A stretch of 64,000 nt of DNA, taken from positions 5,466-69,465 of the forward strand of contig JBKDZP010000004.1 in assembly GCA_047971315.1 (NCBI GenBank). The letters run 5' to 3'. Positions 5,894 to 41,459 of this stretch are shown piece after piece. The notes below the pieces were generated by a model, which searched no databases, was not told where the DNA came from, and saw nothing but the letters and a program-made list of their open reading frames with translations. Positions within the stretch are counted from its first letter, which is position 1, and each line of letters begins with the position of its first letter. Source of the stretch: Bacilli bacterium. GTDB lineage: Bacteria > Bacillota_I > Bacilli_A > RF39 > UBA660. The position numbers and the translations under genes are program-made.

Positions 5894-6106
5894 AATAACC
5901 TTGGTACCTAAAATGGTACCTAAAATAAATAAAAAGGCTGTGAAGCCTTATAAATAAACAAAAATGACCGGACTAGCCGGTCTTCAGGGGGTTTTTGTTT
6001 GTATTCTTAACTGAAAATCGTAAGAATACCTGCACGAATACCTCGTGCTATTATAATTATAAAATTTTTATTATTAAAAGTCAATTAAAAAATATAAATT
6101 TGAACA

Positions 6107-15353: not shown

Positions 15354-15488
15354 ATGAAAAAATCTATTTTAAAGGTTGTTTTGCTTATTGTTGTTGCGTG
15401 TCTTTGTTCTGTTCTAATTTATTATAATTTCGAAAAAAATTCTAAACAAGACACAAATTTATTTCAAATTACGCATTTAGGAAAATAA
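15354..15488 (+). CDS. Small secreted or membrane peptide (44 aa), not in the ORF table.
   Basis: TTAGGAGGATAT-ATG, product MKKSILKVVLLIVVACLCSVLIYYNFEKNSKQDTNLFQITHLGK. A bidirectional hairpin terminator follows at 15490-15515 (AAAAATGACTT/AAGTCATTTTT). Confidence 0.4.
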   Translation: MKKSILKVVLLIVVACLCSVLIYYNFEKNSKQDTNLFQITHLGK

Positions 15489-15510
15489 AAAATGACTTAA
15501 AGTCATTTTT

Positions 15511-16263
15511 TTATACATATTTTCCAATATTTATTATATAATTATCTTTTTTTGTTTGTTTTTCTATTCCTATAAATTTATATTTACCATACTTTCTAAT
15601 ACCAAATATATCATTTTCTTTAAGAATATAGGAATTATTTGTTAGTATTTTATAATTTAAAATTATATCTTTATCATTTATTAATTCTAATATCTTAGAT
15701 CGATTTGTTTTTATTATTTTTGGTAATACTGCATCAATTCTAAATGAGGGAACTATTATTTGTTCTGTTACATATTTTTGTGCAACATTATTTAAAGTAT
15801 CAATTTCTACTTGTTCTAATGATACATTATATTTTCCTATTTTAACTAAATTTTGAGATAAATAATAGGAAATATGTTCTTTAACTACTATATACCAATT
15901 ATCATTAAATATTATGTCTCCAAATAAATTTTGATTTAAATTTAAAGCAAATAAGCTACCTAGTATATCTTGATGTCTTAGGTTATTATTTGTAGTTATT
16001 TTATAAATAATTATATTTGGACAACTAGTATATATTACATTTTTTTCACTATCAATTGATGGTTTATAAATTTGATAATTAGTTTTATTTTTATTTAGTA
16101 CACTAGTTACTAGTTGTAATTGTCTTGGGTCAAGAAAAGGTGTTGAACCACCTTTATTTATTTTTTCTATTTCATTTTTTATTAATATTTTATCTTCTTT
16201 ATTTAGTTCCATATTTTTCCATGAATTCATCATATGAAATTTGCTTATCAATATAACTTCCAT
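15511..16263 (-). CDS. Hypothetical protein with a C-terminal S4-like RNA-binding region (YlmH-like?). The true start is probably an internal Met.
   Basis: 250 aa. The C-terminus KILELINDKDIILNYKILTNNSYILKENDIFGIRKYGKYKFIGI is S4-like. The 5' 65 nt overlap the upstream ABC-F gene, which argues for a later start. Confidence 0.3.
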   Translation of the reverse strand: MEVILISKFHMMNSWKNMELNKEDKILIKNEIEKINKGGSTPFLDPRQLQLVTSVLNKNKTNYQIYKPSIDSEKNVIYTSCPNIIIYKITTNNNLRHQDILGSLFALNLNQNLFGDIIFNDNWYIVVKEHISYYLSQNLVKIGKYNVSLEQVEIDTLNNVAQKYVTEQIIVPSFRIDAVLPKIIKTNRSKILELINDKDIILNYKILTNNSYILKENDIFGIRKYGKYKFIGIEKQTKKDNYIINIGKYV

Positions 16264-27966: not shown

Positions 27967-28855
27967 TGTTAGATTAAAAGGGGAATTTATGGAAAATAAA
28001 AATAAAATTGATTACACAATTATAAAATATAATCAATTATCAAAAGAGTTTGAAACTAAAAGAACATATAAAAAGACACTTCAAAAGGATTTAAACTATA
28101 ATGATAGTATTAAAAAAATATTAGAAGAAAAAATAAATAATCATGAAAATTTAATTAAAAATAAAAATTTAAAATACTCTAATGCCAGTAAATTTGCACA
28201 AAAACTTTTCAAAATTTCAAGTTGTATAACTTTAAGTACTATAATTGGTAGCAGTTTATTAATTGGAAATTCGGCAATTGGAACTATTTTTGGTAGCATT
28301 ATTGGAATTTCTGGTACATTTGCTACTAGTAGTGCCATTTATCATTTTAAACTTAAAAAAATAAAAGATGAGTTTAAAAAAAATATAATATATTCAAGTA
28401 ATGTATATAGAGCAAGAGATATTAAACAAATTGAATCATTTAATTATAGAATTACGGAATTATTAAAAAAAATATCTTTAGTTGAAAGTGAAATTAATAA
28501 TTTAAATATTGAAATTGATAAGCATAAAAATATTATAAACAATTTTGAAATTGAAAAAACAAATAAAGAAAAGATTTATTTTGAAAAACAAAATAAATAT
28601 ATTGAAAGATTATCTAATTTTATTATTAAAAGTGGAATTGATTTATCCTACTTCAATAATAATCCTGAGGATTATAAGGTAAATAATGCTCCAATTATTG
28701 GCGAAAATAATAGTAAAGAAATAAAAGTAAATAATTTTGAAATTATTCCTATATTAGAACAAATCTTACAATATAATGGAATAAAATTAGATAACTTTAT
28801 TGAAAATGATATTGATTTAACACATAGGTTAATAAAGGTAAGAAAATCACGCTAA
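27953..28855 (+). CDS. Hypothetical membrane protein with a coiled coil, co-operonic with the previous gene.
   Basis: 300 aa. The central Gly/Ser-rich transmembrane helices read ITLSTIIGSSLLIGNSAIGTIFGSIIGISGTFATSSAIYHF. The start overlaps the upstream gene. Confidence 0.4.
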   Translation: MLKNNVRLKGEFMENKNKIDYTIIKYNQLSKEFETKRTYKKTLQKDLNYNDSIKKILEEKINNHENLIKNKNLKYSNASKFAQKLFKISSCITLSTIIGSSLLIGNSAIGTIFGSIIGISGTFATSSAIYHFKLKKIKDEFKKNIIYSSNVYRARDIKQIESFNYRITELLKKISLVESEINNLNIEIDKHKNIINNFEIEKTNKEKIYFEKQNKYIERLSNFIIKSGIDLSYFNNNPEDYKVNNAPIIGENNSKEIKVNNFEIIPILEQILQYNGIKLDNFIENDIDLTHRLIKVRKSR

Positions 28856-29232
28856 ATAGTGTGATTTTTATTTTTTATAAATTCAGTTAGAATTTTAGTT
28901 AATGCTCTTTTTTCTATTCTAGATACATAACTTCTTGATATTCCTAATTTTTTAGCAATTTCTTTTTGAGTTACCTCTTTTTGATTTTCTAAACCATATC
29001 TATTTATAATTATTTCTTTTTCTCTATCATTTAAAATACTTAAATATTTTTTTAGATAATTAATATTATTTTGATTATGTATATCCAAAGCAAAATCTGG
29101 ATTTGGAGTTTTTAATATATCTAATAATGAAATTTCATTACCTTCTTTATCAAAACCAATTGAATCATTTAGACTAATATTTTTACTGTTTTTTTTATCA
29201 CTTCTAAAATACATTAATATTTCATTTGCTAT
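28852..29232 (-). CDS. sigK: 3' segment of a split sigK gene (spoIIIC-like; SigK regions 3-4). The in-frame upstream part of the ORF table entry (to 29319) is element sequence.
   Basis: [18 protein letters not shown]...[45 protein letters not shown] is near-identical in pattern to B. subtilis SigK ([18 protein letters not shown] ... LDDREKEVI..RFGL...[26 protein letters not shown]). Confidence 0.8.
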   Translation of the reverse strand: [126 protein letters not shown]

Positions 29233-30931
29233 CTTCGCATTGTGGAACAAATTTCTTTTCGCTTGTATTATTTTCACCGTCATTTTCATTAAAAAAATTA
29301 ATGAATAATGTTTCTCCATCAGTTTTAACTGAATGTATTAAAGCTCTAAGTAATGTTCTTTTTATTTCTAATGATAAGCTATCAAAAGTAGTAAAGTATG
29401 TATTAATGATATTTAATATAATTTCAGCTTGTGTCTCGTCTAATATATTACTATTAGAACTACTATTTTTAACCTCATTAATTTTAATATATATTTCTTT
29501 GTTTTTATCTTTTAGTTCTTTAATTTGTATATTGACTCGATTTAAAGCTTCACCGTCCAAATATAGTATTTTGCTAATGTAATTTTGAATTTCTTCTTCA
29601 TTTTGTTTATATGTTTTTTCAAAAAGTCTTAACTCCATAATATTTTTATCTTCTTCTTTATATTTTCCTTTGGACATATCAATAAGTTTTTTATAAACTT
29701 TTCCTGTAGGTGCAATAAGTTCTTTTACAGTATTCATAACTAGACTATCAACTTCATTACCACTAACATTAGGACATGTACATTTAGATTTACGACTTTT
29801 TTCTTTTAGTTCACACATATAATTAAAAACTAATTGACCTTCTTTATTAGTATAGTTTTTTAATTTAGGACGCATATAAGAACCACAATGAGAGCAACGA
29901 ATTAAACCAGATAGTAAAGCGTTATTTTTAGTCGGCTTTCTGTATCGTTTGTTTCCGTTTTGTTCAATTAATTCTTGAATTTCAATCCATTCTTTACCTG
30001 ATATGATTCCTTTATGCATACCAACAGAGATAATCCAGTCTTGGATATCGCGTTCATTAGTCGTTTTTCCTTTAATTTGCTCTGTTTTATTATAAACCAT
30101 TAATCCATATTTACCATTAAATTTATCTTCGTCTGCATATATTTCTACACCTAATTCTAAAAAATAATTATAAATATCTTTATCGGCAACAACATATACA
30201 GGATTTTGTAAAATATTTTTAATAGCAAACCTAGAAAAATCTATATTATTTTTAGTTTTTATATCATGTTGTATAAGATAAGTTTCTAATTTAGTTTGCG
30301 ATTTTAACTCTTTGTATTTTATATATATATTTTTAATAATATCAATTTCATCTTTTATAGGTGTTAATTTAAATAAACTTCTTTCTTTACCATCAATACT
30401 TATGTTTTTAACTTTCTCTGATTTAAAGCCTGTTGGAGTAGTACCACCAAGCCATCTACCAGTTTTTGCTAACTCTAACATATTATCACGGATTCTTTCT
30501 GCAATAGTATCTCGTTCTAATTGAGCAAAAACGCTAGCTATCATTAACATTGCTGTTCCTAATGGAGTAGAGGTGTCAAAATTCTCTGTTATTGAAATAA
30601 AGCTAACATCATATTGTTGTAGTGTATCTTTCATATTCGCAAAGTCAGACACATTACGACTTATTCTATCTAACTTGTAACAACATACACCTTTTATTTT
30701 TTTATTTTTAATATCATTAATCATAGATTGAAACTGTGGTCTTCTAGTATTATATCCCGTAAAGCCTTCATCTTCATATACCACAACTTCTTTTTCAATA
30801 TCTTCTATATTATATTTATATTGTAGGTGCTTTTTGCAAAGTTCTACTTGATTACCAACGCTATCTCCTTTGCCAGTAAATTTAGATTTTCTAGAGTATA
30901 TAGCCCATTTTTTGTTATTATCTTTATTCAT
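29222..30931 (-). CDS. Large serine recombinase (SpoIVCA-like) of the sigK intervening element.
   Basis: 569 aa. N-terminal resolvase domain (AIYSRKSKFTGKGDSVGNQ), a recombinase domain, and a zinc ribbon (CSHCGSYMRP...CELKEKSRKSKCTC). Its stop codon lies inside the recombination core at the element/sigK junction. Confidence 0.85.
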   Translation of the reverse strand: MNKDNNKKWAIYSRKSKFTGKGDSVGNQVELCKKHLQYKYNIEDIEKEVVVYEDEGFTGYNTRRPQFQSMINDIKNKKIKGVCCYKLDRISRNVSDFANMKDTLQQYDVSFISITENFDTSTPLGTAMLMIASVFAQLERDTIAERIRDNMLELAKTGRWLGGTTPTGFKSEKVKNISIDGKERSLFKLTPIKDEIDIIKNIYIKYKELKSQTKLETYLIQHDIKTKNNIDFSRFAIKNILQNPVYVVADKDIYNYFLELGVEIYADEDKFNGKYGLMVYNKTEQIKGKTTNERDIQDWIISVGMHKGIISGKEWIEIQELIEQNGNKRYRKPTKNNALLSGLIRCSHCGSYMRPKLKNYTNKEGQLVFNYMCELKEKSRKSKCTCPNVSGNEVDSLVMNTVKELIAPTGKVYKKLIDMSKGKYKEEDKNIMELRLFEKTYKQNEEEIQNYISKILYLDGEALNRVNIQIKELKDKNKEIYIKINEVKNSSSNSNILDETQAEIILNIINTYFTTFDSLSLEIKRTLLRALIHSVKTDGETLFINFFNENDGENNTSEKKFVPQCEDSK

Positions 30932-31117
30932 AAAAACATCTCCGTTCCTTTATGTGTATATTATAAATATATTATAACATAAAAACAACTATTATAATGA
31001 CTATTTTTATAAAACCCGAAAAATATAATATATTAATCCTTAAAAGATTTTATGTTATCAAAATATCAATTATACTTGGTGGTTGAAGAACTAAAAAAGC
31101 ACAATTTACATTGTACT

Positions 31118-32230
31118 TTAAAAGAAATCAATTATTGATGAAATATTAATAGTATCCAAATTATTTGCTTTAATAAATACTTTTAATGCTTTATCCTCAA
31201 CTTCTTTTAATATTATATTATAAGTTATACCATTATCTAACTTTGGAGCATAGAAACACGCAAAATCTCCAGACATAAAACCTAAATGATTATTATCTTT
31301 ATCAAGAACCTTAATGGCGTTTTTATCATATTGATTGTTATTGTCTCGTTCAAGATATAATTCATCATCAATTAACAGCTTTGAAACATGTTGTGCTCGC
31401 TCTTTAAAAGTTATCCCTACAACAGTTATAATATTGCTCATAATATTAATTTTTTCATTTTCCCAGTTAGGAATAATACTGCTGTATTTTTTATTTAACA
31501 AATAATATATATCACTATCAATTATTATTAATTTTTCGTTCGGAAATTTTTCTAAAAACAACTTTGTATTTTGCAAACTTCTATAATCAATATGTCCTTT
31601 TACTTCAATAAGTGTTTTGTTTTTTAAAATAAAGTCAGGTACATATAACTGTGAGGCATATAGATAGCTAGAGTTTTTAGAATCTAATTGAAATCCATCA
31701 GTTTCATACTCAAACTCAATATTTAAATGCTTTAAAGTTCTAGCTACATTTGCTTCCCATGATGAACGAACTTCCATCTGTAAATCATCTCTAAATTCAT
31801 TTTTAAACTGTTGACTATAATTGTTTTCTTCATGATTAGTTAAAGCATTATCTAAATTTTTATCATTTACAGTTTCCTTATCTTTTTTAACTAAATTATT
31901 AATAAACTCGTCATTGTCTTCTGGCCACTTTGAATAACTACAATTAGGAAATGTTGAGCATCCATAAAAGTATTCATTAGTTTTTGTTTTCTTTACTAAC
32001 AAATCATTTCCACACTCTGGACATTTTCCAAACACTATATTACTATTGTCGTTTTCTTTTTCAATATATTTACAATTAGGATAATTAGAGCAACTGGTAA
32101 ATTCTCCAAATCTACCACGTCTTCTGACTAAATCATTTCCACATTTAGGACATTTCCCTACAATGATAGGCTTACTCTCTATATTAGTTTTATGAATATT
32201 AGTTAATTTCATAAAAGCACCTCCATACAA
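31118..32230 (-). CDS. Fusion protein: two TopoIA-type zinc ribbons, a PD-(D/E)xK-like nuclease and a C-terminal HIRAN domain.
   Basis: Two CPxCG...C..C ribbons (CPKCGNDL..CSNYPNC and CPECGNDL..CSTFPNC). A middle YVPDFILKNKTLIEVKGH region is D...ExK-like. The C-terminus reads VVGITFKER...YDKNAIKVLDKDNNHLGFMSGDFACFYAPKLDNG, a HIRAN pattern. Confidence 0.5.
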   Translation of the reverse strand: MYGGAFMKLTNIHKTNIESKPIIVGKCPKCGNDLVRRRGRFGEFTSCSNYPNCKYIEKENDNSNIVFGKCPECGNDLLVKKTKTNEYFYGCSTFPNCSYSKWPEDNDEFINNLVKKDKETVNDKNLDNALTNHEENNYSQQFKNEFRDDLQMEVRSSWEANVARTLKHLNIEFEYETDGFQLDSKNSSYLYASQLYVPDFILKNKTLIEVKGHIDYRSLQNTKLFLEKFPNEKLIIIDSDIYYLLNKKYSSIIPNWENEKINIMSNIITVVGITFKERAQHVSKLLIDDELYLERDNNNQYDKNAIKVLDKDNNHLGFMSGDFACFYAPKLDNGITYNIILKEVEDKALKVFIKANNLDTINISSIIDFF

Positions 32231-32302
32231 ATATATTATACCATAACTTACTCGAATAGAGTAATACTAATTTTTTCAATAAATGAGAAAATATAAATAG
32301 AT

Positions 32303-32551
32303 ATGTGTGGTGATAAAATGTTTGATAGAACTAATGAAAATTTTGTATATGAATTAGTTAGCAAGAATATTAAAAAGCAACGACAGTTAAAAGGTTGGAC
32401 TCAAGAAGAGTTGGCTGATAAGATAAATTATTCTACTCAGTTTATTTCTAATATTGAAAGCAAAAACCTTCAAACGTTTTCACTGGGAACACTATGGAGA
32501 ATAGCGCTAGTATTAGAAGTTGATATTGCTACTTTTTTTCAAGAAGATTAA
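32303..32551 (+). CDS. XRE-family HTH transcriptional regulator (Cro/cI-like).
   Basis: LVSKNIKKQRQLKGWTQEELADKINYSTQFISNIE is an HTH_3 motif. Confidence 0.7.
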   Translation: MCGDKMFDRTNENFVYELVSKNIKKQRQLKGWTQEELADKINYSTQFISNIESKNLQTFSLGTLWRIALVLEVDIATFFQED

Positions 32552-32691
32552 TTCTTCTTTTTTTGTAAGAAGAAAGCAAAAATTCTTTTGCTTCCGAGGT
32601 TTATACTAAAAAATATGGATTTTCAGTTGTAAAATACCCCTATATATTGTAAAAATATATAATTATACATTATATTATGTTCAGGTAAAAA

Positions 32692-33657
32692 TTACTTACT
32701 ATTCTTTAACACATCTTTCTTCTTGGATGTGTTTTTTTCATGTATTTGTCTAACTTTATTTCGATAGTTAATCATTTTAGCTGTGTTAGCTTCTTCTTCT
32801 TTTTTACGTTCTTCATAATCAAGCTTAGCACTAAGATTCATTTTAGTATATTCTTTAGGGGATAAAATATCAGGTTGTTCATAGTTATTAATAGTATTTG
32901 CTAATTGTGCATTATCAATCTCTTGTTTCTTTTTTTCAGAGTATTCAATCCATTTTACAATATCTTTTGATTTTCTGATTCTTTTCATTAACTTTTGAAA
33001 AGCGAGCATTGCCTTAAGTTCATATAATTGCTCATCTTCATCATTGTAGAAACAATTATCAAGCATGGTTTTAGCCTCACATATTTCCTCACCTTTATCA
33101 TTAAAAAAACTCTGTGTTTCATTGATAAAATATTTATCATCAATGTATGGATTTTCTTTACTAGGATAAACCATATAAGAAAGTATGTCCCTTAATATGT
33201 TTTCATCTACACTTGATATTAAAGTGTTATAGAAAACTAAAGCACTATTTTCATGACTATTAATAAGACCACCATTGGGAACTGGTTTTGAACTGTTGAA
33301 TCTGCCATTAAATCTGTTAACGTTTTCTGCCATCATGACTCTAGCTTGTTTATTTAATAAACTCTCACCATTAGTTAAACTACTTTTATAATCAATCCCT
33401 AAAACATCTTTAACATCCAAGTCATAGGTTGTAATCATTGAAATTAAGTAACTAAAATTTTGTATACCTTTACCGCTCTCGTAATTTTTGATTGTTGTTT
33501 TAGAACAACCTAGAATCCTAGACACTTCTGTTTTTGTTAAACCTTTTCTGTCTCTTGCACTTTCTAAAGTCTTTCCTATTAATTTAGTATCCATAATTAT
33601 ACCTCCATCAAGTCCAATTTTGTGGATTATTATTATAACAATCCACAAAATCAACAC
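32692..33657 (-). CDS. XRE-family HTH regulator with a long C-terminal domain (repressor-like).
   Basis: N-terminal HTH (LIGKTLESARDRKGLTKTEVSRILGCSKTTIKNYESG) plus about 230 aa of unknown C-terminal domain. Confidence 0.55.
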   Translation of the reverse strand: MLILWIVIIIIHKIGLDGGIIMDTKLIGKTLESARDRKGLTKTEVSRILGCSKTTIKNYESGKGIQNFSYLISMITTYDLDVKDVLGIDYKSSLTNGESLLNKQARVMMAENVNRFNGRFNSSKPVPNGGLINSHENSALVFYNTLISSVDENILRDILSYMVYPSKENPYIDDKYFINETQSFFNDKGEEICEAKTMLDNCFYNDEDEQLYELKAMLAFQKLMKRIRKSKDIVKWIEYSEKKKQEIDNAQLANTINNYEQPDILSPKEYTKMNLSAKLDYEERKKEEEANTAKMINYRNKVRQIHEKNTSKKKDVLKNSK

Positions 33658-33900
33658 TTTTTATAACATAATTGTATCACAAACTTTTATATATTAAAAT
33701 CTTATCAGTTGCCGATAATGTAATTGTTAGCAACTGTGGATATATAGATACTGTAGTAATTAAGAATAGAAAACTAAATAATGATTTATGTGCTTAGAAT
33801 CGTTATTTATAAGCATTTTTCTAATTTTAATATAGGTATCTATAAATTCCTATATCTTCATGAAGAATATATGTATTTTTACCTATAAGGAGGTGTTTTA

Positions 33901-34398
33901 GTGGCAAGGATGTTGTTTGATAAAGATACTGGTGAATTAATTGGCGAGTTTGATGATAACCAAATTATCATGTCCTATGATATCAATAATTTACGTAGAG
34001 GACATTTAAACAAGAAACTATTCTATAAGTTTTATGTTGATTCGGTTAATATCTTTACAAGTGGATTATTAACTTTACCGGTTGTAAACACATTTTTCAA
34101 TTTAATTAAACACCTTAATATGAATATGAATGAATTTGTGTCATTCAACGGAATGCCTGCCAATATAGAACAAATTGCAACTAAGTTTGACGTTAGTAGA
34201 AAAACAATTTCTAATCATTTAAAGATGTTAGAAAAACATGATATGGTACGAAAAGTGAAAGTTGGTAGGCAACGACATATTTTAATTAACCCATATTTTA
34301 TTAGTTATGGAAATAACAACACAGATGAATCACTAACAATATTTTCTAATACAATTTGGGCGAAAACTACGTTTAAAAGAAGGAGAAAAATAAGATGA
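33901..34398 (+). CDS. RepL-like winged-helix replication/maintenance protein.
   Basis: 165 aa. The stretch NEFVSFNGMPANIEQIATKFDVSRKTISNHLKMLEKHDMVRKVKVGRQRHILINPYFISYGNN parallels the pSN2 RepL segment NNTMIATTREIAKATGTSLQTVITTLKILEEGNIIKRKTGVLMLNPELLMRG. Confidence 0.45.
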   Translation: MARMLFDKDTGELIGEFDDNQIIMSYDINNLRRGHLNKKLFYKFYVDSVNIFTSGLLTLPVVNTFFNLIKHLNMNMNEFVSFNGMPANIEQIATKFDVSRKTISNHLKMLEKHDMVRKVKVGRQRHILINPYFISYGNNNTDESLTIFSNTIWAKTTFKRRRKIR

Positions 34399-34676
34399 AA
34401 AATATAAAAAAGGCAATAATGCTTTTAACTAGAATAATGACCGATTTTGATTGGCAGGATGGAATAATTGAGAAAAATGGAAAAGCAATAAGTATTTCAA
34501 AAATAAGGGAGTATTTTCAATCAAATGGTAGTTTTTTTTATCAATCGATTAGACTTTTAGAAAATAATGGTTTTTGTAAAAGAAAAAGATTTGATGGAAA
34601 AGAAAAATACTTGATATTAGATAATCGTTTATTGTATCGTTTTCAAACAATGATTAGTGGTGAAAATGATGAGTAA
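34395..34676 (+). CDS. Hypothetical protein.
   Basis: A 93-aa ORF coupled to its neighbours. Confidence 0.3.
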   Translation: MKNIKKAIMLLTRIMTDFDWQDGIIEKNGKAISISKIREYFQSNGSFFYQSIRLLENNGFCKRKRFDGKEKYLILDNRLLYRFQTMISGENDE

Positions 34677-34905
34677 GTTTCACGTTAAGATAGAAGAACA
34701 AGAATCTTGGACTTTCTATGATTATGAAAATAAAACTGTCTCAATATGGACAAATCGTCCTAGTTGTGCAAGAAGAATATCGAAAGTCTTAGGCGAACCT
34801 GATGGAGGAATATCACCGTGGGCTAGTTGGCTTATTTCATTCGATGATAAAGTCACTATTAGAAAAGCATCAGCAATTAATAATTTTTTGCCATTATCCA
34901 AATAA
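34657..34905 (+). CDS. Hypothetical protein.
   Basis: An 82-aa ORF overlapping the upstream stop. Confidence 0.3.
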   Translation: MVKMMSKFHVKIEEQESWTFYDYENKTVSIWTNRPSCARRISKVLGEPDGGISPWASWLISFDDKVTIRKASAINNFLPLSK

Positions 34906-34945
34906 ATTAAGTTTAGTTTCATAAACTTTATTAGGAGGGATTGCT

Positions 34946-35131
34946 TTGAAAGTGGTGGTAAACTTACCTTTTGAAGAAGACGATAAAAACATTTTCGAAG
35001 ATAAGATTGCTACTTTTCATGCAACCTTACTTCTAGAAACAATAGATAAACTAGATATCAATAATCAAAACAAGAAAATAATTTTAAATCATATTCTTAA
35101 TAAACTTAAAGAATTAAATTTAAATAATTAA
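34946..35131 (+). CDS. Hypothetical small protein.
   Basis: 61-aa ORF. A terminator hairpin (CCTATAT/ATATAGG + T-run) follows at 35138-35168. Confidence 0.3.
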   Translation: MKVVVNLPFEEDDKNIFEDKIATFHATLLLETIDKLDINNQNKKIILNHILNKLKELNLNN

Positions 35132-35201
35132 AAATAAGCGCCTATATTGTTAGATATAGGTGTTTTTTGATGATATAATGTATATATATGGGGTGATAAT
35201 A

Positions 35202-36581
35202 TTGAAAAAGAATGTGGAACATGGAGTCGTTAAATATAAAGACAAAGATTATACTTACTCTTATAAAGATAATATTATTACACTGACGCCAAAAGAATTA
35301 GAACCATATTGGCAAAGTATGTTTAAAAAATTTAAGAGAGAAGAAAAAGAAGAAAATGTTTATGGAATAACTAATTCAAACTTCCCAGTAGCATTTATAA
35401 AACTTAATTTAATAGATATAGGTGGCGGAGTTTTGCAAGCTTTTGTTCCTGCATACATTGTTGCAAACGCAAATACAGTATCGCCATTACCAGAAATAAA
35501 TAATTTTAAATCAATGACTTTTTATGGTGATTGCATTAATTCTTTATATAATCCTAAACAAATGATTAAGGATTCAGATGTAACAAAAAAATACAAGCCT
35601 TATATGAAATTTAAACATCCTAAAGAAGTTATAAAAAACATACTAGTTAACAAACTTGACTTCATATTTAGGATTACATGGGAGTTTCCTATTAAAGATA
35701 AAGTACCTGCTGTGCTTTTAAAGTCTTTGTTAGAAATAAAGTTTGATAGTAAAAAAACTATTGATGAAATTATAGAATACTATCAGCAAGTTAAAATGCT
35801 GTTTAGTTTCATTAATAATAGGCACTATATAGAATTTTCAGACATATTATTAAAAGCTGATATGTTTGTTGAAGACTTTCCTGATAAAAAAGTTAGAAAT
35901 GTTGGAGTAAGCTATAATTTATATATTATTCTTCCAAAAGATGTTAAAGTTGATTTACCTAATTCAATATATGAAACAAGGTTGAATAAGATTGAAAATC
36001 AATTTGAGAATTTATTTAATACTTTAAATAAATGTGGTGGTTATAATTTACATTTTCCAGATAATCAATATGATGAAGACCACGTTGATATAGATAAATT
36101 TTTAAGAGTTGCATCCGCATTTGAATCATGGTTTGATATTAATTTTGATGACTTCAAATCTGATACTGACTTATTATATAAAATTTTAAAAAATGATGTG
36201 CTAAAATTTATTGCAGAAAGAGGAAAAAATACAAATGCCACTGGTAGAGACTATTTAAAACGTTTTAAGAATGAAATAGAACGTCAGGAGGGTACTTTGT
36301 TAGAGCAATTGTTGTATTCATATCAAATCTTTGAAAATTGTGTCAAAAAGGTTAAAGAACGAATATATAGGCATTATAATTTAGATGATGTAAAAATAAA
36401 TGATATCTTTCTAGCTTTAGCAAAAAAAAGAAATCGCTTATCGCATGGCGATATAAACGATTTAGGATTTTCAAAAGAAGAGATAGTTGCATTTATAATT
36501 TTAGAGAGATTAATTCAATGTTTAATATATTATAAGGCAGAATTTAGCTTAGATTCAATAAGCGAAATAGTTGATAAATAG
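35202..36581 (+). CDS. HEPN-domain abortive-infection-like protein (ApeA-like N-region plus a C-terminal Rx4H HEPN motif). The TTG start at 35202 is favoured over the table's ATG at 35160.
   Basis: GGGTGA lies 5 nt before TTG. The ATG at 35160 sits inside a TGATATAAT extended -10 element (35171-35179). The C-terminus LAKKRNRLSHGDINDL carries the R-x4-H HEPN catalytic signature, as in Abi_2 (AbiD/AbiF) and ApeA-HEPN proteins. Confidence 0.5.
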   Translation: MKKNVEHGVVKYKDKDYTYSYKDNIITLTPKELEPYWQSMFKKFKREEKEENVYGITNSNFPVAFIKLNLIDIGGGVLQAFVPAYIVANANTVSPLPEINNFKSMTFYGDCINSLYNPKQMIKDSDVTKKYKPYMKFKHPKEVIKNILVNKLDFIFRITWEFPIKDKVPAVLLKSLLEIKFDSKKTIDEIIEYYQQVKMLFSFINNRHYIEFSDILLKADMFVEDFPDKKVRNVGVSYNLYIILPKDVKVDLPNSIYETRLNKIENQFENLFNTLNKCGGYNLHFPDNQYDEDHVDIDKFLRVASAFESWFDINFDDFKSDTDLLYKILKNDVLKFIAERGKNTNATGRDYLKRFKNEIERQEGTLLEQLLYSYQIFENCVKKVKERIYRHYNLDDVKINDIFLALAKKRNRLSHGDINDLGFSKEEIVAFIILERLIQCLIYYKAEFSLDSISEIVDK

Positions 36582-36586
36582 GAGGA

Positions 36587-37729
36587 ATGACTATGATTAT
36601 ATATAATTTAATGGACATAGCAAGGAAACTTAAAATTGATTTTGATGGAATTACTTCAAAAATTGAGCATAATGGTCAAAAAGGTGATACTCGAGAAGAA
36701 TTGTTAAAAGAAAGTCTAGCGCAATTTATACCACAAAAATATAGTATAGGAAATGGAATAATAGTAGATAGCAATTTGGTTCAGAGTAAGCAACAAGATT
36801 TTATTATCTATGACGGATTTAATAGTCCTCTTATGTTGAAAAAGCAATCAATGCAAGTTGTACCAATCGAGAGTGTATATTGCACAATCGAAATAAAGTC
36901 TACATTAACAAAAACCGAATTAGAAAAGTGTGTAGCTAATATTAAAAGTGTTAGAGAATTAGAAAAAGTTTGTTTACAAACATCAGCTATCGTATATGAA
37001 AACGCAAATAATACTATTGGATTTGTTTTTGCCTATACTTCTGATAGTTCTTTAGACACAATTTATGAAAATTTAGTAGAAATGAATAAATTGATAGAGC
37101 CACATCACCAAATCAGTGGAATATGCATTTTAGATAAGGGATTAATATTAAACGTTTCTAAAAATGGAATGAATCAATTAGAATTATATCCAAATAAAAA
37201 TAGTACTCTATGTTGTTCTGATAATCCTTTAGAAAATAATTTGTATTTGTTTTATTTATTAATACTTCAGCATTTAAATATTTCAAAATTATTGCCACCA
37301 GATTTAATTAAATATGCCGAGAAACAAAATGCGTTTAATATTAGGTCACATATGAAAATAGAATTATTACCAGATGATGGAAAAGTAAATATAATGGATG
37401 GTTTAACTTTTGATGTGAAAGATGTAAAAAAAATAAATGAAATACATTCACGAATGACACCCTTTTTTAATGGTAATTGTAGTGAGCAAGAAACTGAAAA
37501 GCATCTTGTTGAAAATATAATTCCTATGCTTGAAACATTTAGTAAGTACCAAACCGTTGGCGGTGTTATAGGAGGTAATAATAATGAACCAATTTTACCT
37601 TCTGATTTTGAATTTATCAAAACAACTTATTGTAAAAAAACGAATAATGAAAAAATAACCGAGGAAGAATTGGTAAAATATAATAACTTAATTACATCAT
37701 TTGTTTCAAAAAAAGATTCAACGAATTAA
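36587..37729 (+). CDS. PD-(D/E)xK nuclease-like protein (possibly DUF6602-like), co-operonic with the HEPN gene.
   Basis: 5-bp gap to the upstream gene. The N-terminus reads GDTREELLKESLAQFIPQKYSIGNGIIVDSNLVQSKQQDFIIYD...VVPIESVYCTIEIKSTL, which gives the D...E-x-K restriction-endonuclease-fold signature. Confidence 0.4.
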   Translation: MTMIIYNLMDIARKLKIDFDGITSKIEHNGQKGDTREELLKESLAQFIPQKYSIGNGIIVDSNLVQSKQQDFIIYDGFNSPLMLKKQSMQVVPIESVYCTIEIKSTLTKTELEKCVANIKSVRELEKVCLQTSAIVYENANNTIGFVFAYTSDSSLDTIYENLVEMNKLIEPHHQISGICILDKGLILNVSKNGMNQLELYPNKNSTLCCSDNPLENNLYLFYLLILQHLNISKLLPPDLIKYAEKQNAFNIRSHMKIELLPDDGKVNIMDGLTFDVKDVKKINEIHSRMTPFFNGNCSEQETEKHLVENIIPMLETFSKYQTVGGVIGGNNNEPILPSDFEFIKTTYCKKTNNEKITEEELVKYNNLITSFVSKKDSTN

Positions 37730-37851
37730 ATTTCTTGAATTTTTTTAATATACTTATGATACTACATTTCAAATAATTGAAAATAAAAAATATTATTTTT
37801 ACATGCAGACATTTTAAATGATATAATATTCTTAGTAAAGTAAGGTGAATT

Positions 37852-39576
37852 ATGAATATATTAGAAGAGTTAAATAAAAAAGGTGTTACTTTAAACATTA
37901 GGTACTGTGGAGCTGATGATATGTTAACTGGGTTTATGGCAAAAGAATTGCTAGAAAATCAAGATGATATTTTAAAGCATTATCAACATAATAAAATTGA
38001 TAATGTTAATGAATATATAGATTATATATTTTTAGAAATATTAATGAAATTTTTTGAAATTGTACCACTAATCATTATTGAAGAAAAAAGAGAATCATTT
38101 AAGCAATTTTTAGATAAATGTAAAATAGTATATGACAAATATATAAAGAAAGACGTTATATTTTTTATAAAAAACCATTATTTAGATATTTATAGTTATA
38201 AAGATAATGAAGACAGCAGTTTATTTTTAGAACTTGATTTAAAAGATTATACTTCTATTTTTATTGGTATGAATTTTAATTCATTTTCTATAACAATAAT
38301 TGATTATGTTATTACAATTGCAACTTTTGATGTTATAGATAGTTTTGAAATTTGGGGAAAATATTTTTATAAAAATCCTAATCAACTAAACAATCTTTTT
38401 AATGAAGAAAATATTAAAAAAGTTTTTAACATGAGGTTTTCAGAAGTTAGTGATATTCTAGAAGCTTTAAAACCGAATAAAAAGTTTTCGACTATAATTT
38501 CTAATACAATTGATATTATATATGGAATAGTGAAGGAAAACTACTTTAATCCGAAAGACGACACAGGAATTTGGCAAAGTTATTATATGTTAAATGATAC
38601 ATTAGTCTTTTTAAAAAAAATGAACTCAACTTATATTTACGAGCTTGAAAAAGAATTATATCAAATAGAAATAAAGTTTAATGAAAATTTAATGAAAACA
38701 GGTTACACAAGTACTTTTGAGTACAACTTAAAACCATTTGTAGAGTTTTTTGAAAACAAAACCAGTCCATGGGAAGTTAGGATTGTTTACTTAACCCATT
38801 TTCAAGATAAAGAAGGTAATTTATGTAGTTTTTTAGAACATGGTGCTAAATCTAATATAAAAGCTTTGAGCGATGAAATTGCTAGAAAAAATCCTGGAAC
38901 TGATGACTATTTTACTAGTTGGAGGTTAAGGAATTTATCATTACAGATATTTGAAATAAAAGCACGCATAATGTCTATATTTCAAAAAAAAGAAAATGTT
39001 AGTGAATATATTTCTGATATATATGGTGAGTTAAAGTATATTTGTGAAAATAACAATACTACAATGGAACTAGAAGAATTAACTGATAATGTGGAGATGC
39101 TATCACAATATTTAGCTGATTTGTTTATTAATTTATCGACCGAGAAATCTACAGAAATGACAATAAAAAATACTATTTATGGATGTTCAATCTTTGTATG
39201 TAGTTTAATAGAAAAAGTTCTTCGTATTATTTATAAAAATAGTTTAAGGGAAATATTATATATACCCGATTCTGGTATTACATTAGGTACATTACTTAAG
39301 GAAGAAGATAAAAATAATAGTATTATAATTGACATATTGGGTAAGGAGCAAATAAAGTGCCTTAGATATTTTTTACATAAAACTGAAAATGGAATTGGTG
39401 ATAATATAAGAAATGATTTGGCTCACTTAAATGGTAGAACTCCAAGACGGTTAAATTATGATTTAATTACTGAACTACTTTCATATTTAAGCTCTATACT
39501 AAATAGTTGCGTATTATATTATCAAAGACAAACAAATAATAAGTCAAAGGAGTTAGATTCTATTGAAAACAGCTAA
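37852..39576 (+). CDS. Large protein with a C-terminal HEPN (DUF4145-like, RN..AH motif) domain.
   Basis: 574 aa. The C-terminus GIGDNIRNDLAHLNGRTPRRL carries R-x4-H. It has its own promoter (TTTACA ... TGATATAAT at 37819-37827) and AAGGTGA ribosome-binding site. Confidence 0.45.
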   Translation: MNILEELNKKGVTLNIRYCGADDMLTGFMAKELLENQDDILKHYQHNKIDNVNEYIDYIFLEILMKFFEIVPLIIIEEKRESFKQFLDKCKIVYDKYIKKDVIFFIKNHYLDIYSYKDNEDSSLFLELDLKDYTSIFIGMNFNSFSITIIDYVITIATFDVIDSFEIWGKYFYKNPNQLNNLFNEENIKKVFNMRFSEVSDILEALKPNKKFSTIISNTIDIIYGIVKENYFNPKDDTGIWQSYYMLNDTLVFLKKMNSTYIYELEKELYQIEIKFNENLMKTGYTSTFEYNLKPFVEFFENKTSPWEVRIVYLTHFQDKEGNLCSFLEHGAKSNIKALSDEIARKNPGTDDYFTSWRLRNLSLQIFEIKARIMSIFQKKENVSEYISDIYGELKYICENNNTTMELEELTDNVEMLSQYLADLFINLSTEKSTEMTIKNTIYGCSIFVCSLIEKVLRIIYKNSLREILYIPDSGITLGTLLKEEDKNNSIIIDILGKEQIKCLRYFLHKTENGIGDNIRNDLAHLNGRTPRRLNYDLITELLSYLSSILNSCVLYYQRQTNNKSKELDSIENS

Positions 39577-40591
39577 TATAAGTAGAAACAATCATTTTGT
39601 TTCACAAATGTATCTTGATGCCTGGAAAAATACTAACAATAAAGTCATGGTGTATGATTTACTAGTTCCAAATGAAAGGGTACCAATATGGACTCCTAAG
39701 TCCACAAAAAGTGTTGGTAGTATGGATAGTTTATTCGTAAGACTTAAGCATGACAAAGAAATAGATGATATAGAAAAATGGTTTTCAACAGAATATGAAT
39801 ATCCTGCTAAGGATGTATTAGAAAAAGTGATTAATGAAGATAGAATTAGTGAAGAAGAATGGCATAAATTAATTGATTTTGTTGCTTGCCATATTGTTAG
39901 GTCACCATCATTTCTAATAAGAACTTTAGAAACAGCTAAAAAAGATTGTATTCCAATTTTTGAAGAGGAAGCCAAAGAAATTCCAGAAAAGATTAAAAAT
40001 AAAATTAAAAAATCGGTTGCAAAAAAAGATTACGATGATGAACTATTTCCATTAAAAGTAACCAATATTGGTGACGATGAAACTGGTGAAAATAGTTTAT
40101 ATAAAGTAGAGACAATATTTGGAAAGCAATTCTATTTGTGGATAATGAAACACTTGCTAGGAAACACATGTAAGATTTTACATAAGCATAAGTGGTCAAT
40201 TATAACAGTAGACGAAAAAGTAATTTTACCAACTAGTGACAATCCTGTTGCATGTATTAATTATAACGATGAAAATGATTATAATTTTGTTGGAGGTTGG
40301 GGACGCAAAAACAGTAATATTTTGTTTCCTATTTCACCAAATAAAATATTATATACACAGGTTGGCACTAAACGTATTCCAAGAATAAAAGCTACTTATG
40401 AAATGAGTCTAATATTCAAAAAAATTATAGTTGAAAATTCATATAAATGCATAATTTCAAATTTTAATGATGATGAAATTCCTAAGATAAAACCAAGAGT
40501 AGTAGATTTAAATATTTTTTTGGAGGAAAAAGAGAAATGGAAAGATTTTCAAAAAAATTATATTGAAAAAGAATCAGAATTTATAAAATAA
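39563..40591 (+). CDS. DUF4238-family protein (the family used by the single-gene Rst_DUF4238 anti-phage system), translationally coupled to the upstream HEPN gene.
   Basis: The N-terminus NNHFVSQMYLDAWKN matches the DUF4238 hallmark (HYVPQFYL.(N/R)F). It overlaps the upstream ORF by 14 nt. Confidence 0.5.
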   Translation: MKTANISRNNHFVSQMYLDAWKNTNNKVMVYDLLVPNERVPIWTPKSTKSVGSMDSLFVRLKHDKEIDDIEKWFSTEYEYPAKDVLEKVINEDRISEEEWHKLIDFVACHIVRSPSFLIRTLETAKKDCIPIFEEEAKEIPEKIKNKIKKSVAKKDYDDELFPLKVTNIGDDETGENSLYKVETIFGKQFYLWIMKHLLGNTCKILHKHKWSIITVDEKVILPTSDNPVACINYNDENDYNFVGGWGRKNSNILFPISPNKILYTQVGTKRIPRIKATYEMSLIFKKIIVENSYKCIISNFNDDEIPKIKPRVVDLNIFLEEKEKWKDFQKNYIEKESEFIK

Positions 40592-40611
40592 TTAATCAAT
40601 ATTATACAAAA

Positions 40612-40643
40612 AAAGATTTAATGGACTAATTCCTTAAATCTTT
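40612..40643. terminator. Bidirectional hairpin terminator between convergent genes.
   Basis: A perfect 10-bp stem AAAGATTTAA/TTAAATCTTT with a 12-nt loop, flanked by A/T runs. Confidence 0.45.
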
Positions 40644-41121
40644 TATAGTGCTCTTTAGACATTGTATTCATACCATATTCCCATCTTTTAATTGTTGTAT
40701 AGCTAACTTTCATTCTTTTTGCTAATTCAGTCTTACTAATATTTTCTTTTAATCGGTATTCTATTATTTTTTGAGAGGGATTATCTAAAAGAAAACCTAT
40801 ATATGTGTTTGACTTCTTTAGTGGTTCAGCATCTATTTTATCAATAATAGCTTGTACAAATTTTTTGTCATAGTATTTGATATTTTTATTATTTTCTACT
40901 GCCATTATTTTATCTCGAGATACATTTAATAAATCTGCTAACTCAGTTTGTTTTATATCATTTAGACGCCTATAATATTTAATCTTTTTACCTAATTCAC
41001 TTTGCTTATTAATAATTGGCAATTTCTTATTAGAATGAAGTTTATATGAATGATTTAGATTTACTTTATTTTTGATGTTTTTATATAGTACATGAATACC
41101 TAAATATAGTTCCATGAAGTT
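40618..41121 (-). CDS. Double-HTH XRE-family regulator at the right end of the element. The start is uncertain; the table ORF reads across the sigK junction.
   Basis: Two HTH_3 motifs (LGKKIKYYRRLNDIKQTELADLLNVSRDKI and IIEYRLKENISKTELAKRMKVSYTTIKRWEYG). Confidence 0.5.
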   Translation of the reverse strand, partial: NFMELYLGIHVLYKNIKNKVNLNHSYKLHSNKKLPIINKQSELGKKIKYYRRLNDIKQTELADLLNVSRDKIMAVENNKNIKYYDKKFVQAIIDKIDAEPLKKSNTYIGFLLDNPSQKIIEYRLKENISKTELAKRMKVSYTTIKRWEYGMNTMSKEHYKRFKELVH

Positions 41122-41124
41122 ATC

Positions 41125-41459
41125 ATTGCATTTTCTATACATCTAGCACAGTAAGTAGTTATTCTAGTACCATGTTGATATGAGTAACTATCTACTCCTT
41201 TAATTAATCCAATTGTTCCAATGCTTATTAAATCATCAGTATCTTCTTTTTTATATTCATATTTTTTAACTATATGAGCTACTAATCTTAAATTATGTTC
41301 TATAAGTTTATTTCTTGCTTCTAGATCACCTAGTTTAGCCTTTTTAACGCATTCTTCCTCCTCTTCTTTTGATAATGGATTTGGAAAAACATTATTTGAA
41401 TATGCTGCAGTAAAAAGATAAAAGTCTTTAAATAAATATCTAATTATTTTTAAAAACAA
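41125..41459 (-). CDS. sigK: 5' segment of the split sigK (spoIVCB-like: pro-sequence plus regions 1.2-2). The last residues of the ORF (MITSWNYI) are read-through into the element.
   Basis: [89 protein letters not shown] parallels B. subtilis SigK [90 protein letters not shown]. Confidence 0.8.

Follow-up and report, generated by a model that had tools for sequence, protein, structure and literature searches.

A predicted zinc-ribbon, endonuclease I-like, and HIRAN fusion protein encoded in a sigK-splitting element of an uncultured Bacilli bacterium

The gene described here lies in an element of ∼11.9 kb that interrupts sigK in the metagenome-assembled genome of an uncultured, low-GC member of the Bacilli; the window referred to below is the whole stretch of 64,000 nucleotides that was analyzed. 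The 5′ half of sigK occupies positions 41129 to 41459 of the minus strand, and the reading frame departs from the gene after position 41129. The 3′ half, which encodes the Sigma70_r4 domain, is found at 28852 to 29222 of the same strand, with coding resuming at 29222. Rejoining the halves gives, in frame, a SigK of 233 amino acids that scores 303.4 bits against TIGR02846 spore_sigmaK (cutoff, 298.65) and 315.9 bits against NF004471 (cutoff, 252). The junctions are marked by a 19-bp imperfect repeat, ATAGCAAATGAAATATTAA beside the 3′ half (29214 to 29232, minus strand) and ATAGAAAATGCAATGATAA beside the 5′ half (41120 to 41138, minus strand), in which 15 of 19 positions are identical and which has an AAATG core. 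A large serine recombinase of 569 amino acids is encoded at 29222 to 30931 (minus strand) and contains the Resolvase (PF00239), Recombinase (PF07508), and Zn_ribbon_recom (PF13408) domains. Its stop codon overlaps the junction core, and its similarity to the XisF/Ccr recombinases falls below the cutoff. Other genes of the element encode ApeA-like, NucC-like/DUF6602, and DUF4238 proteins, alongside unassigned open reading frames (ORFs) of 61 to 93 amino acids. Judged by its sequence, this is a sigK-splitting element of the skin type. The skin elements of Bacillus subtilis and Clostridioides difficile also split sigK and carry a serine recombinase (SpoIVCA/CD1231) at one end, and they have in common with the present element the short imperfect junction repeats and a precise joining that restores SigK, which here is predicted from the nucleotides. 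The gene set of the present element (ApeA-like, NucC-like, DUF4238, and the nuclease) is probably a different one. A previously unannotated sigK-splitting element with defense-type genes is documented in this way for an uncultured, gut-type lineage of Bacilli.

The target gene was delimited mechanically as an ORF at 31118 to 32230 (minus strand), 370 amino acids long from a TTG codon, and residue numbers given here follow that 370-residue ORF. The true start is probably M7 (nucleotide 32212), because a Shine-Dalgarno sequence, GGAGGTG (32218 to 32224), stands 5 nucleotides upstream of the ATG at 32210 to 32212, and because an identical database protein of 364 amino acids (P0001) begins at that same ATG. 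The coding sequence would then be 31118 to 32212 (minus strand), encoding 364 amino acids. The Shine-Dalgarno sequence is preceded by a predicted extended −10 promoter element, TGgTATAAT (32235 to 32243), so that the expression signals together occupy 32218 to 32243 of the minus strand. The promoter call rests on direct reading, since a generic scan is uninformative in such AT-rich DNA and returned 41 sites where 38.6 were expected in shuffled sequences (25% GC). A terminator-like hairpin with a 10-bp stem, a GUAA loop, and a T-run (31090 to 31119, minus strand) starts at the stop codon. Its calculated stability is −10.2 kcal/mol (z = −4.1), which none of 200 shuffled sequences equaled, and it was missed by a generic scan, the stem being poor in G-C pairs. 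This hairpin stands between the target and the recombinase gene, which suggests that the target transcription unit is separate from that of the recombinase.

The encoded protein consists of two four-cysteine Top1-type zinc ribbons, followed by a T7 endonuclease I-type nuclease and then a C-terminal HIRAN domain. The first-pass annotation had proposed a fusion of two TopoIA-type C4 zinc ribbons, a D...E-x-K nuclease-like region, and a C-terminal HIRAN domain, and all three parts were recovered by profile and structure searches. The ribbons score above the PF01396 cutoff with all eight cysteines present, the nuclease claim holds for a PD-(D/E)xK domain that can now be narrowed to the T7 endonuclease I family, and the HIRAN claim agrees with both a PF08797 score above the cutoff and a beta-barrel fold match by Foldseek. 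The architecture had also been called unusual, and this is fair, as the nuclease-HIRAN family has few members, of which only a minority carry the zinc ribbons. This three-part layout is found again in ∼19 clusters, at 44 to 70% identity, with the catalytic and HIRAN motifs invariant. A low-complexity linker (31805 to 31915, minus strand; residues 106 to 142) precedes the nuclease; it is poorly conserved, its length varies in family group A1, and residues 118 to 143 have a pLDDT below 50 in the model. The gene is functional and under purifying selection. The overall dN/dS relative to the closest homolog is ∼0.12, with values of 0.06 for the nuclease and 0.09 for the HIRAN domain, and the linker stands at 0.54 versus ∼0.06 to 0.16 in the domains. 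This overall ratio and the recurrence in ∼19 clusters argue that the domain combination is beyond chance.

Zinc ribbon 1 (32045 to 32161, minus strand; residues 24 to 62) has its cysteines at C27, C30, C47, and C53, and zinc ribbon 2 (31916 to 32035, minus strand; residues 66 to 105) has them at C70, C73, C91, and C97. Two copies of Zn_ribbon_Top1 (PF01396) were matched with 100.9 bits against a cutoff of 32, the pair having an E value of 3e-29. In A1, the cysteines of ribbon 1 are invariant and those of ribbon 2 nearly so. Both profile and Foldseek searches liken the ribbons to the single-stranded DNA-binding C-terminal domains of TopoI, although the Foldseek match of ribbon 1 to those domains in Escherichia coli TopoI (4rul) is weak, with an E value of 6e-3. 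A type IA topoisomerase, or a fragment of one, was considered and rejected, since only the ribbons match and the score is 52 bits against the PRK07220 cutoff of 635. The topA_bact identity was likewise discarded (20 bits against a cutoff of 456, the ribbons alone matching), and a Pfam search found neither of the topoisomerase catalytic domains PF01131 and PF01751 in the protein. The database name, [quoted passage not shown] covers one domain only.

The nuclease domain (31445 to 31804, minus strand; residues 143 to 262) contains the motif YVPDFILKNKTLIEVKGH and has putative catalytic residues E159, D199, E209, and K211. Alignments and models together place it in the T7 endonuclease I family of junction-resolving enzymes. 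The window protein itself scores 26.9 bits against PF05367 (28.7 bits as an isolated domain), just under the Pfam cutoff of 29.1, but all 17 of the family members tested match that profile at an E value of 0.01 or lower, the best at 1.7e-12, and one relative (L041) reaches 53.3 bits. A profile built from the family finds T7 endonuclease I in the PDB with E values of 3e-12 to 1e-9. In that alignment E159, D199, E209, and K211 fall on E20, D55, E65, and K67, the catalytic residues of the T7 enzyme, and the E/D/E/K set is invariant in both family groups (A1 and A2) and in A3. The 1fzr entry has a lysine at the E65 position, an observation consistent with the alignment register. When an AF2 model of the domain alone (pLDDT, 93) was searched, the five best PDB matches were all T7 endonuclease I, with probabilities of 0.96 to 0.99, followed by other PD-(D/E)xK nucleases, with VRR-Nuc and FAN1 only distant. 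The TM score of this model against T7 endonuclease I is ∼0.36 to 0.39 with an rmsd of ∼21 Å, which is what a comparison of a compact monomer model with a strand-swapped crystal dimer should give. The full-length model gave a weak Foldseek match to the same enzyme (probability, 0.44 to 0.54), which we do not count against the fold because the family profile and the domain-only model agree. T7 endonuclease I (the gene 3 product; PF05367; 1fzr, 1m0d, and 2pfj) thus has a homologous nuclease domain, but it is a single-domain phage protein of ∼149 amino acids, whereas here the domain has two zinc ribbons on one side and a HIRAN domain on the other, and the fusion gene sits in nonreplicative accessory regions.

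The HIRAN domain (31121 to 31444, minus strand; residues 263 to 370) scores 39.5 bits against PF08797 (cutoff, 24.7) over residues 269 to 352 and carries the motif N299-x-Y301-D302-x-N304-A-I-K-V. Foldseek matched it to the HIRAN domain of human HLTF (4s0n, 4xzf, and 5bnh) and to the stand-alone bacterial protein lp_0118 (3k2y) with E values of ∼3e-6, rmsd values of 1.3 to 1.8 Å, and target TM scores of 0.65 to 0.84. The fold is common to all three, as is the N-x-Y-D-x-N-A-I-K-V motif. The HLTF domain recognizes 3′ ends at stalled forks, and Y72 and Y93 flank the pocket in which it accommodates a single-stranded dinucleotide end. Y301 and D302 of the target align with Y93 and D94 of HLTF and are conserved in the family. 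The equivalent of HLTF Y72 is F275 here, and this position varies in the family (F, M, I, L, Y, R, or V), so the end-binding pocket may differ from that of HLTF. D94 of HLTF acts in recognition of the 3′-OH. HLTF combines its HIRAN domain, which drives fork reversal, with a SWI/SNF translocase and a RING domain, whereas here the partner is a nuclease. An HLTF-like HIRAN domain joined to a junction-resolving nuclease would suit the cleavage of reversed forks, and the protein could be imagined to process stalled or reversed forks to the benefit of the host, with carriage on mobile DNA being incidental. We consider this quite improbable, given that the family is small and unevenly distributed (the nuclease-HIRAN core forms ∼105 clusters in a set of 1.84 billion representatives), that nearly all occurrences are in mobile or accessory regions, and that core repair genes were never seen adjoining the gene.

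The wider family shares the nuclease-HIRAN core and differs in its N-terminal modules, which are Top1 zinc ribbons here and a ∼200-residue unknown domain or leucine-rich-repeat-like regions elsewhere. The first-pass annotation had placed the gene in a mobile-element or defense context, next to a recombinase, and both statements stand: the recombinase gene lies 187 bp downstream of the target on the same strand, and homologs occur in integrative elements and prophage lysogeny regions and have restriction, SIR2, and ApeA neighbors. Hosts of the target gene include the present sigK-splitting element, an element that splits a PBP5 gene, a small integrase/AAA_25 island, and prophages. For the genome-derived loci, neighbors were counted as aggregate family totals. 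Of 22 contexts, 11 have a recombinase within 5 kb, and these enzymes come from two unrelated families. No partner gene is conserved among the homolog contexts. Defense-type neighbors of the homologs are a Type ISP restriction enzyme with PIF1, a SIR2 gene immediately downstream, ApeA in Guptibacillus, and GmrSD; like the defense-type genes of the present element, these are individual cases and do not amount to a statistical enrichment.

A serine recombinase directly adjoins the target in the present element, in L001/L002, and in the Guptibacillus locus L021, and it lies within 4 kb in L011, L020, and L032. This proximity could mean that the protein serves the recombinase, either as a recombination directionality factor or as a processor of excision products. 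We regard such a role as very unlikely indeed. Only 7 of the 22 contexts have a serine recombinase within 5 kb, most have none, and in several a tyrosine integrase takes its place. The serine enzymes cleave and rejoin DNA themselves, without the help of a nuclease. The directionality factor characterized in C. difficile, CD1234, has 72 amino acids, and GirX of the gerE element has been named as a second; the unassigned ORFs of 61 to 93 amino acids would fit that role better. A terminator-like hairpin belonging to the target also precedes the recombinase gene. A serine-recombinase partner was rejected as the main reading, the association not being obligatory.

Divergent from the target is a gene for an XRE-type helix-turn-helix protein of 82 amino acids (32303 to 32551, plus strand; PF01381, 1.8e-13), which might regulate the promoter region of the target. 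The XRE gene is kept beside the target in L001/L002 (84%) and in L011/L012 (46%). With the divergent gene adjoining the target in three contexts, one might think of a toxin or addiction module in which XRE protein silences the nuclease and element loss or stress releases it, thereby stabilizing the element. Many family members reside in elements that interrupt genes and have to be kept in the germ line, and MazF-type toxins and other selfish modules occur near the target in prophage contexts, as would fit such a module. However, the XRE neighbor is missing from most contexts, the arrangement is divergent rather than the codirectional two-gene operon typical of type II systems, and no small antitoxin-like partner is conserved, and we hold this explanation to be a poor prospect.

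The distribution of the fusion bears on whether the protein instead serves the element itself. As part of the element backbone it could resolve or debranch the intermediates of the element or of an ancestral prophage, or degrade host DNA upon induction. The nuclease belongs to the T7 endonuclease I family, its relatives are annotated in PHROGs as Holliday junction resolvases, the nuclease domain occurs by itself in isolated Bacillus phages, and the nuclease-HIRAN core is found on ∼20 IMG/VR predicted viral contigs. In addition, the target, the XRE gene, and the wHTH165-orf93 pair travel together in two lineages of recombinase-driven, gene-splitting elements. Against this, the fusion is absent from all 50,697 isolated phage genomes searched; it is likewise absent from 72,556 plasmids. 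A reading of the isolated-phage set as "not in phages" was set aside in its plain form, being qualified by the ∼20 viral contigs that carry the core. In the viral and prophage contexts, the target has Rha/antirepressor genes on one side and a gene for an Ltp lipoprotein on the other, MazF toxins and integrases are close by, and replication or packaging genes are not its neighbors there. Profile searches of the present element of ∼12 kb also found no recognizable replication or packaging genes, and the target occurs in unrelated element types that have no XRE, wHTH165, or orf93 partners. On balance we find an element-serving function unlikely, though not negligibly so.

The reading that we prefer, tentatively and with somewhat less than even confidence, is that of a stand-alone, structure-specific DNA endonuclease carried as mobile-element cargo and most likely directed against replicating phage or mobile DNA. 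The biochemical part of this reading is well supported. The analysis establishes the domain identities, the conservation of the catalytic residues and of Y301 and D302 in the 3′-end pocket, the purifying selection, the structure of the element, and the genomic contexts, whereas the substrate, the dimerization, the regulation, and the role in defense are inferred. The enzyme would be metal dependent, with the T7 endonuclease I-type domain cutting junctions or branches, probably as a dimer by analogy with T7 endonuclease I. Single-stranded DNA would be gripped by the zinc ribbons at the N terminus and a free 3′ end by the HIRAN domain at the C terminus, and the modules should jointly steer cutting to branched DNA that has both a single-stranded stretch and a 3′ terminus. 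Candidate substrates are replication forks, D-loops, 3′ flaps, and intermediates of rolling-circle or recombination-dependent replication. The gene would be accessory cargo of integrative elements, here the serine-recombinase-driven, sigK-splitting element of ∼11.9 kb, and would be transcribed from its own vegetative-type promoter, possibly under the divergent XRE protein. The replication intermediates of incoming phages or mobile DNA may then be destroyed or stalled, giving superinfection exclusion or a single-gene defense. Between the two functions suggested in the first-pass annotation, a DNA-end sensor or effector of the island and a part in element maintenance, the evidence does no more than lean toward a cargo or effector gene, which has its own promoter and terminator, has no obligatory recombinase partner, and occurs in unrelated element types. 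Against cargo, the cotravel with XRE and wHTH165-orf93 is also what a gene of the backbone or of maintenance might show, and against defense, the viral contigs that carry the core leave room for a role that benefits phages. Host forks also carry 3′ ends, and no feature of the sequence accounts for a sparing of self-DNA.

A broader proposal, doubtful but in our view deserving some credence, is that the nuclease-HIRAN core represents a class of single-protein immunity that reads the geometry of the replication intermediates of invaders. The HIRAN domain would sense free 3′-OH ends or, since the HIRAN pocket holds just a dinucleotide end, short DNA breakdown products. Sensing would position or switch on the T7 endonuclease I-type cutter at forks or D-loops, and the swappable N-terminal modules would tune the structures or partners that are targeted. 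Prokaryotic HIRAN domains are still described as uncharacterized and are regarded as the ancestors of the 3′-end reader of HLTF. If the immunity proposal is true, a prokaryotic HIRAN domain would for the first time have an assigned function, and HLTF-like 3′-end sensing at forks would have a precedent in bacteria. If phages or plasmids are indeed restricted, a structure-sensing, sequence-independent mechanism would be added to bacterial immunity, and a 3′-end-directed, branch-specific nuclease might become available as a reagent. The claim is otherwise modest, as nucleases are common mobile-element cargo and the protein would be an uncharacterized take on a known theme. A HIRAN domain and a well-understood junction-cutting nuclease in one gene of 364 codons nevertheless offer a tractable entry point.

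Comparison with catalogued defense systems and with other HIRAN fusions sets the protein apart. Against PADLOC-DB 2.0, the target was matched in its HIRAN region alone (residues 269 to 349), by the candidate PDC-M03B with an E value of 7e-11. The PDC-M03 or HipA-HIRAN (HipI) clusters have a HIRAN domain and a predicted defense association in common with the target, but their HIRAN proteins have no nuclease and act with a HipA-type kinase, whereas the target has a nuclease and no kinase. Membership in PDC-M03 was ruled out, the similarity being at the level of the HIRAN domain only and the HipA-type partner being absent from the element. Literature searches, in which "HIRAN" is confounded by the surname Hirano, found no description of a nuclease-HIRAN family. 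Iyer, Babu and Aravind are said to have noted computationally, in 2006, eukaryotic fusions of HIRAN to restriction-endonuclease-fold (VRR-Nuc) nucleases. Those eukaryotic fusions follow a like logic, joining a DNA-structure reader to a structure-specific nuclease of the PD-(D/E)xK type, whereas the present family is bacterial, uses a nuclease of the T7 endonuclease I type, and in the zinc-ribbon form has the additional ribbons. Both HIRAN and VRR-Nuc domains have been attributed to bacterial selfish elements.

The protein encoded at 31118..32230 (minus strand) carries a pair of C4 zinc ribbons of the Top1 type (PF01396; 100.9 bits, Pfam cut-off 32), in which eight of eight zinc-ligand cysteines are present, and a HIRAN domain at its C terminus (PF08797, 39.5 bits against 24.7). 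Between them lies a match to phage endonuclease I (PF05367) that, at 26.9 bits, falls below the Pfam cut-off of 29.1. This middle region also matched, at 1e-12 to 1e-11, PHROGs families that bear the annotation Holliday junction resolvase or endonuclease. A profile of the domain, built from 17 family members, matched T7 endonuclease I in the PDB with E values of 3e-12 to 1e-9, and all 17 members matched PF05367 individually. In the profile alignment, E159, D199, E209, and K211 line up with the catalytic residues E20, D55, E65, and K67 of T7 endonuclease I (residue numbers throughout are those of the 370-residue ORF). PDB entry 1fzr has a lysine at the E65 position, consistent with the register of that alignment. 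Judged from these residues, the T7 endonuclease I-type active site is predicted to be intact.

The AlphaFold model of the full-length protein had a mean pLDDT of 74.7, with the nuclease and HIRAN domains at about 80 to 95 and the N terminus and a linker (residues 118 to 143) below 50; the nuclease domain modeled by itself reached 93. The five best PDB matches to the nuclease model in Foldseek were all T7 endonuclease I (probability, 0.96 to 0.99), followed by I-Bth0305I, a Cas4-like protein, VRR-Nuc, and FAN1, all PD-(D/E)xK nucleases. The rmsd to T7 endonuclease I was large, as expected for a compact monomer model superposed on a single chain from a strand-swapped dimer. The HIRAN domain matched those of HLTF and the bacterial protein lp_0118 with an rmsd of 1.3 to 1.4 Å. 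Its motif N299-x-Y301-D302-x-N304-A-I-K-V aligns with N91-x-Y93-D94-x-N96-A-I-K-V of HLTF, in which Y72 and Y93 border the pocket for a single-stranded dinucleotide end; the equivalent of Y72 is F275, at a position that is variable across the family. The fold is that of HIRAN, and the Y-D motif of the pocket is conserved. Both the HIRAN and the nuclease folds proposed in the first-pass annotation were borne out by profile and structure searches.

The whole architecture was found in about 19 clusters with 44 to 70% identity, across which neither the four nuclease residues nor the HIRAN motif varies. The nuclease-HIRAN core, the part common to the wider family, was searched for exhaustively among 1.84 billion representative proteins; 95 proteins were recovered at an E value of ≤1e-30, and about 105 contained the core in full. 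Only two or three of these clusters have the zinc-ribbon N terminus; most carry an uncharacterised region of about 200 to 250 residues that is devoid of cysteine motifs, and a few have other extensions. Among core proteins such as P0141 and P0149, some have long N-terminal regions that by eye resemble leucine-rich, BspA-type repeats, and others have coiled-coil or Cys-rich N termini, which suggests that the targeting end is swapped modularly.

The gene resides in an element of about 11.9 kb (~29223-41128) that splits sigK. The 3′ half (28852-29222) belongs to the gene that lies below the recombinase, 28852..29319, and the 5′ half (41129-41459) to the one at 41100..41459; both are on the minus strand. 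Joined at a common AAATG core, the halves give an uninterrupted, in-frame gene of 233 codons whose product scored 303.4 bits with the curated SigK equivalog TIGR02846 (cut-off, 298.65). An imperfect 19-bp repeat, identical at 15 of 19 positions, is present at both element junctions. The element is a sigK-intervening element of the skin type known from Bacillus subtilis and Clostridioides difficile, here in the MAG of an uncultured, low-GC member of the Bacilli. A large serine recombinase of 569 residues, whose stop codon overlaps the junction core, occupies one end. It is followed by the gene under study, a divergent XRE gene, a 321-residue HTH protein, a wHTH165-orf93 pair together with small ORFs, a HEPN protein that resembles ApeA below threshold, a DUF6602 protein matching NucC-type nuclease models, a 574-residue unknown protein, a DUF4238 protein, and lastly another HTH protein. 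The neighboring XRE gene bears on a possible role as a toxin or addiction module that the XRE protein controls, which we consider quite improbable.

The defense-type cargo block is on the plus strand (35160-36581, 36587-37729, 37852-39576, and 39563-40591). Its ApeA-like protein matched ApeA_NTD1 and HEPN_Apea, both under the Pfam cut-offs, the DUF6602 protein matched PADLOC PD_DExK/NucC models at 1e-39 to 5e-27, and the 574-residue protein has, at its C-terminal end, an R-x4-H motif (IRNDLAH) that recalls HEPN. The DUF4238 protein is part of this block as well. The otherwise collinear sigK element at two other loci, L001 and L002, is missing the ApeA-like and DUF6602 genes. These two loci have identical gene coordinates and the same homologue (P0002), and the flank upstream of the sigK 5′ half (~1-1400) differs, with a RecD2-like helicase in one and TruB in the other, suggesting rearrangement or different host backgrounds.

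The 370-residue ORF begins at TTG. A strong Shine-Dalgarno sequence, GGAGGTG (32218-32224), stands 5 nt ahead of an ATG (32210-32212), and an identical database protein (P0001, from a 144-kb contig of a "Bacilli bacterium" MAG) has 364 residues; M7 is therefore very probably where translation begins. Upstream, the sequence TGgTATAAT (32235-32243) reads as an extended -10 element. Directly after the stop codon is a hairpin with a T-run (-10.2 kcal/mol, z = -4.1), which suggests a transcription unit apart from the downstream recombinase gene. Against the closest homologue, that of L001 (69%), dN/dS was 0.12 overall and 0.06, 0.09, 0.16, and 0.54 for the nuclease, HIRAN, ribbons, and linker, respectively, ratios that are rough since dS is near saturation. 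The gene is under purifying selection.

Elsewhere, homologues occupy varied genomic contexts. In L011 to L013 and L022, an element with two large serine recombinases splits a Peptidase_S11/PBP5-type gene, and its proteins compare with those of the window at 46% (XRE), 48% (the fusion protein), 52% (wHTH165), and 29% (orf93). The interrupted gene of L011 lies at 6032-6661 and 15424-15963, and the L012 element carries a reverse transcriptase (RVT_1) as an extra. In other Bacilli MAGs, L023 (8517-9668) and L037 (4424-4861), the homologue is within a few hundred bases of a PBP5-type gene; that PBP5-type gene looks intact in L023 (383 residues) and is a 145-residue fragment in L037, a hint of repeated insertion at this locus or of element remnants there. 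Other homologues were seen in a small island that also holds a tyrosine integrase, HTH_17, and an AAA_25 protein (L003), beside a Type ISP restriction enzyme and a PIF1 helicase (L014), beside a Mob_Pre relaxase (L018), and, in Guptibacillus hwajinpoensis, immediately adjacent to a serine recombinase, with ApeA in the vicinity. In L007 (6772-11267), the homologue sits between a 408-residue unknown protein and a SIR2 protein, with gaps of 3 and 10 bp, and a 487-residue unknown follows SIR2; the arrangement is kept in four contigs (L007 to L010) and may be a multigene system in that lineage.

When all neighbors of 22 distinct loci were clustered, 11 loci had a site-specific recombinase within 5 kb (serine in 7, tyrosine in at least 4), and no other partner spanned more than three loci. 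A recombinase accessory role is highly improbable, because homologues also occur away from any recombinase and because CD1234, a characterised directionality factor, has only 72 residues; GirX is a second example of such a factor. The fusion was not found in 50,697 isolated phage genomes, where the nuclease or HIRAN occurs alone, or in 72,556 plasmids. The core was present in about 20 predicted viral contigs of IMG/VR, beside integrase, Rha/antirepressor/Bro, MazF-toxin, and Ltp-lipoprotein genes; its position there is in a lysogeny or accessory region, not among replication genes. The family behaves as a stand-alone gene in mobile and accessory DNA.

Four-way junctions are among the branched DNAs that T7 endonuclease I cuts, and the C-terminal ribbons of topoisomerase I, whose structures 4rul and 6pcm our ribbons matched weakly in Foldseek, bind ssDNA. 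The HIRAN domain of HLTF binds 3′ ssDNA ends. From what the same modules do elsewhere, the protein would cleave branched DNA in which both ssDNA and a 3′ end are exposed, and forks, D-loops, 3′ flaps, and rolling-circle intermediates are candidate substrates. Such an activity might also serve host repair, an option we rate as poor, or the element itself, by debranching or by degrading host DNA as T7 gene 3 does, which seems unlikely. The most economical reading, a tentative one given somewhat under an even chance, is that the protein serves to exclude or combat phages and other mobile DNA, which produce many such branched, 3′-ended structures as they replicate. It is favored because of the gene's location, its own predicted vegetative-type promoter, and the company it keeps; the main problem is how host forks would be spared. 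That the gene provides structure-sensing single-gene immunity, which would give prokaryotic HIRAN a first function, is doubtful.

To judge from the sequence, every domain clearly belongs to a known family, and the pairing of HIRAN with a structure-specific nuclease has, in principle, a precedent. A 2006 comparative-genomics paper reportedly has HIRAN joined to VRR-Nuc. No description of the T7 endonuclease I/HIRAN family or its zinc-ribbon variant was found in the literature searched, where comparative genomics links HIRAN with VRR-Nuc and prokaryotic HIRAN domains were still called uncharacterised in a 2024 paper. The protein belongs to no system among the PADLOC models searched. The family is a well-defined, testable candidate rather than a surprise. 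Identification as a topoisomerase was rejected by the domain searches.

Other genes in the window merit mention. Ribosomal protein L20 (49134-49670, minus strand) has a C-terminal extension matching Rho_N (PF07498, 2.6e-10, residues 144 to 177), an unusual fusion to rplT. Adjoining infC/rplT, a 297-residue protein (50611-51504, minus strand) consists of six DUF4116 repeats (214.7 bits). Two tandem paralogous genes of 165 residues (48047-48544 and 48561-49058, minus strand) had no Pfam match at an E value of ≤0.001; their products begin MK.LYIDFDGVIL, a start whose DxDG resembles, by eye, the motif of HAD-type phosphatases.
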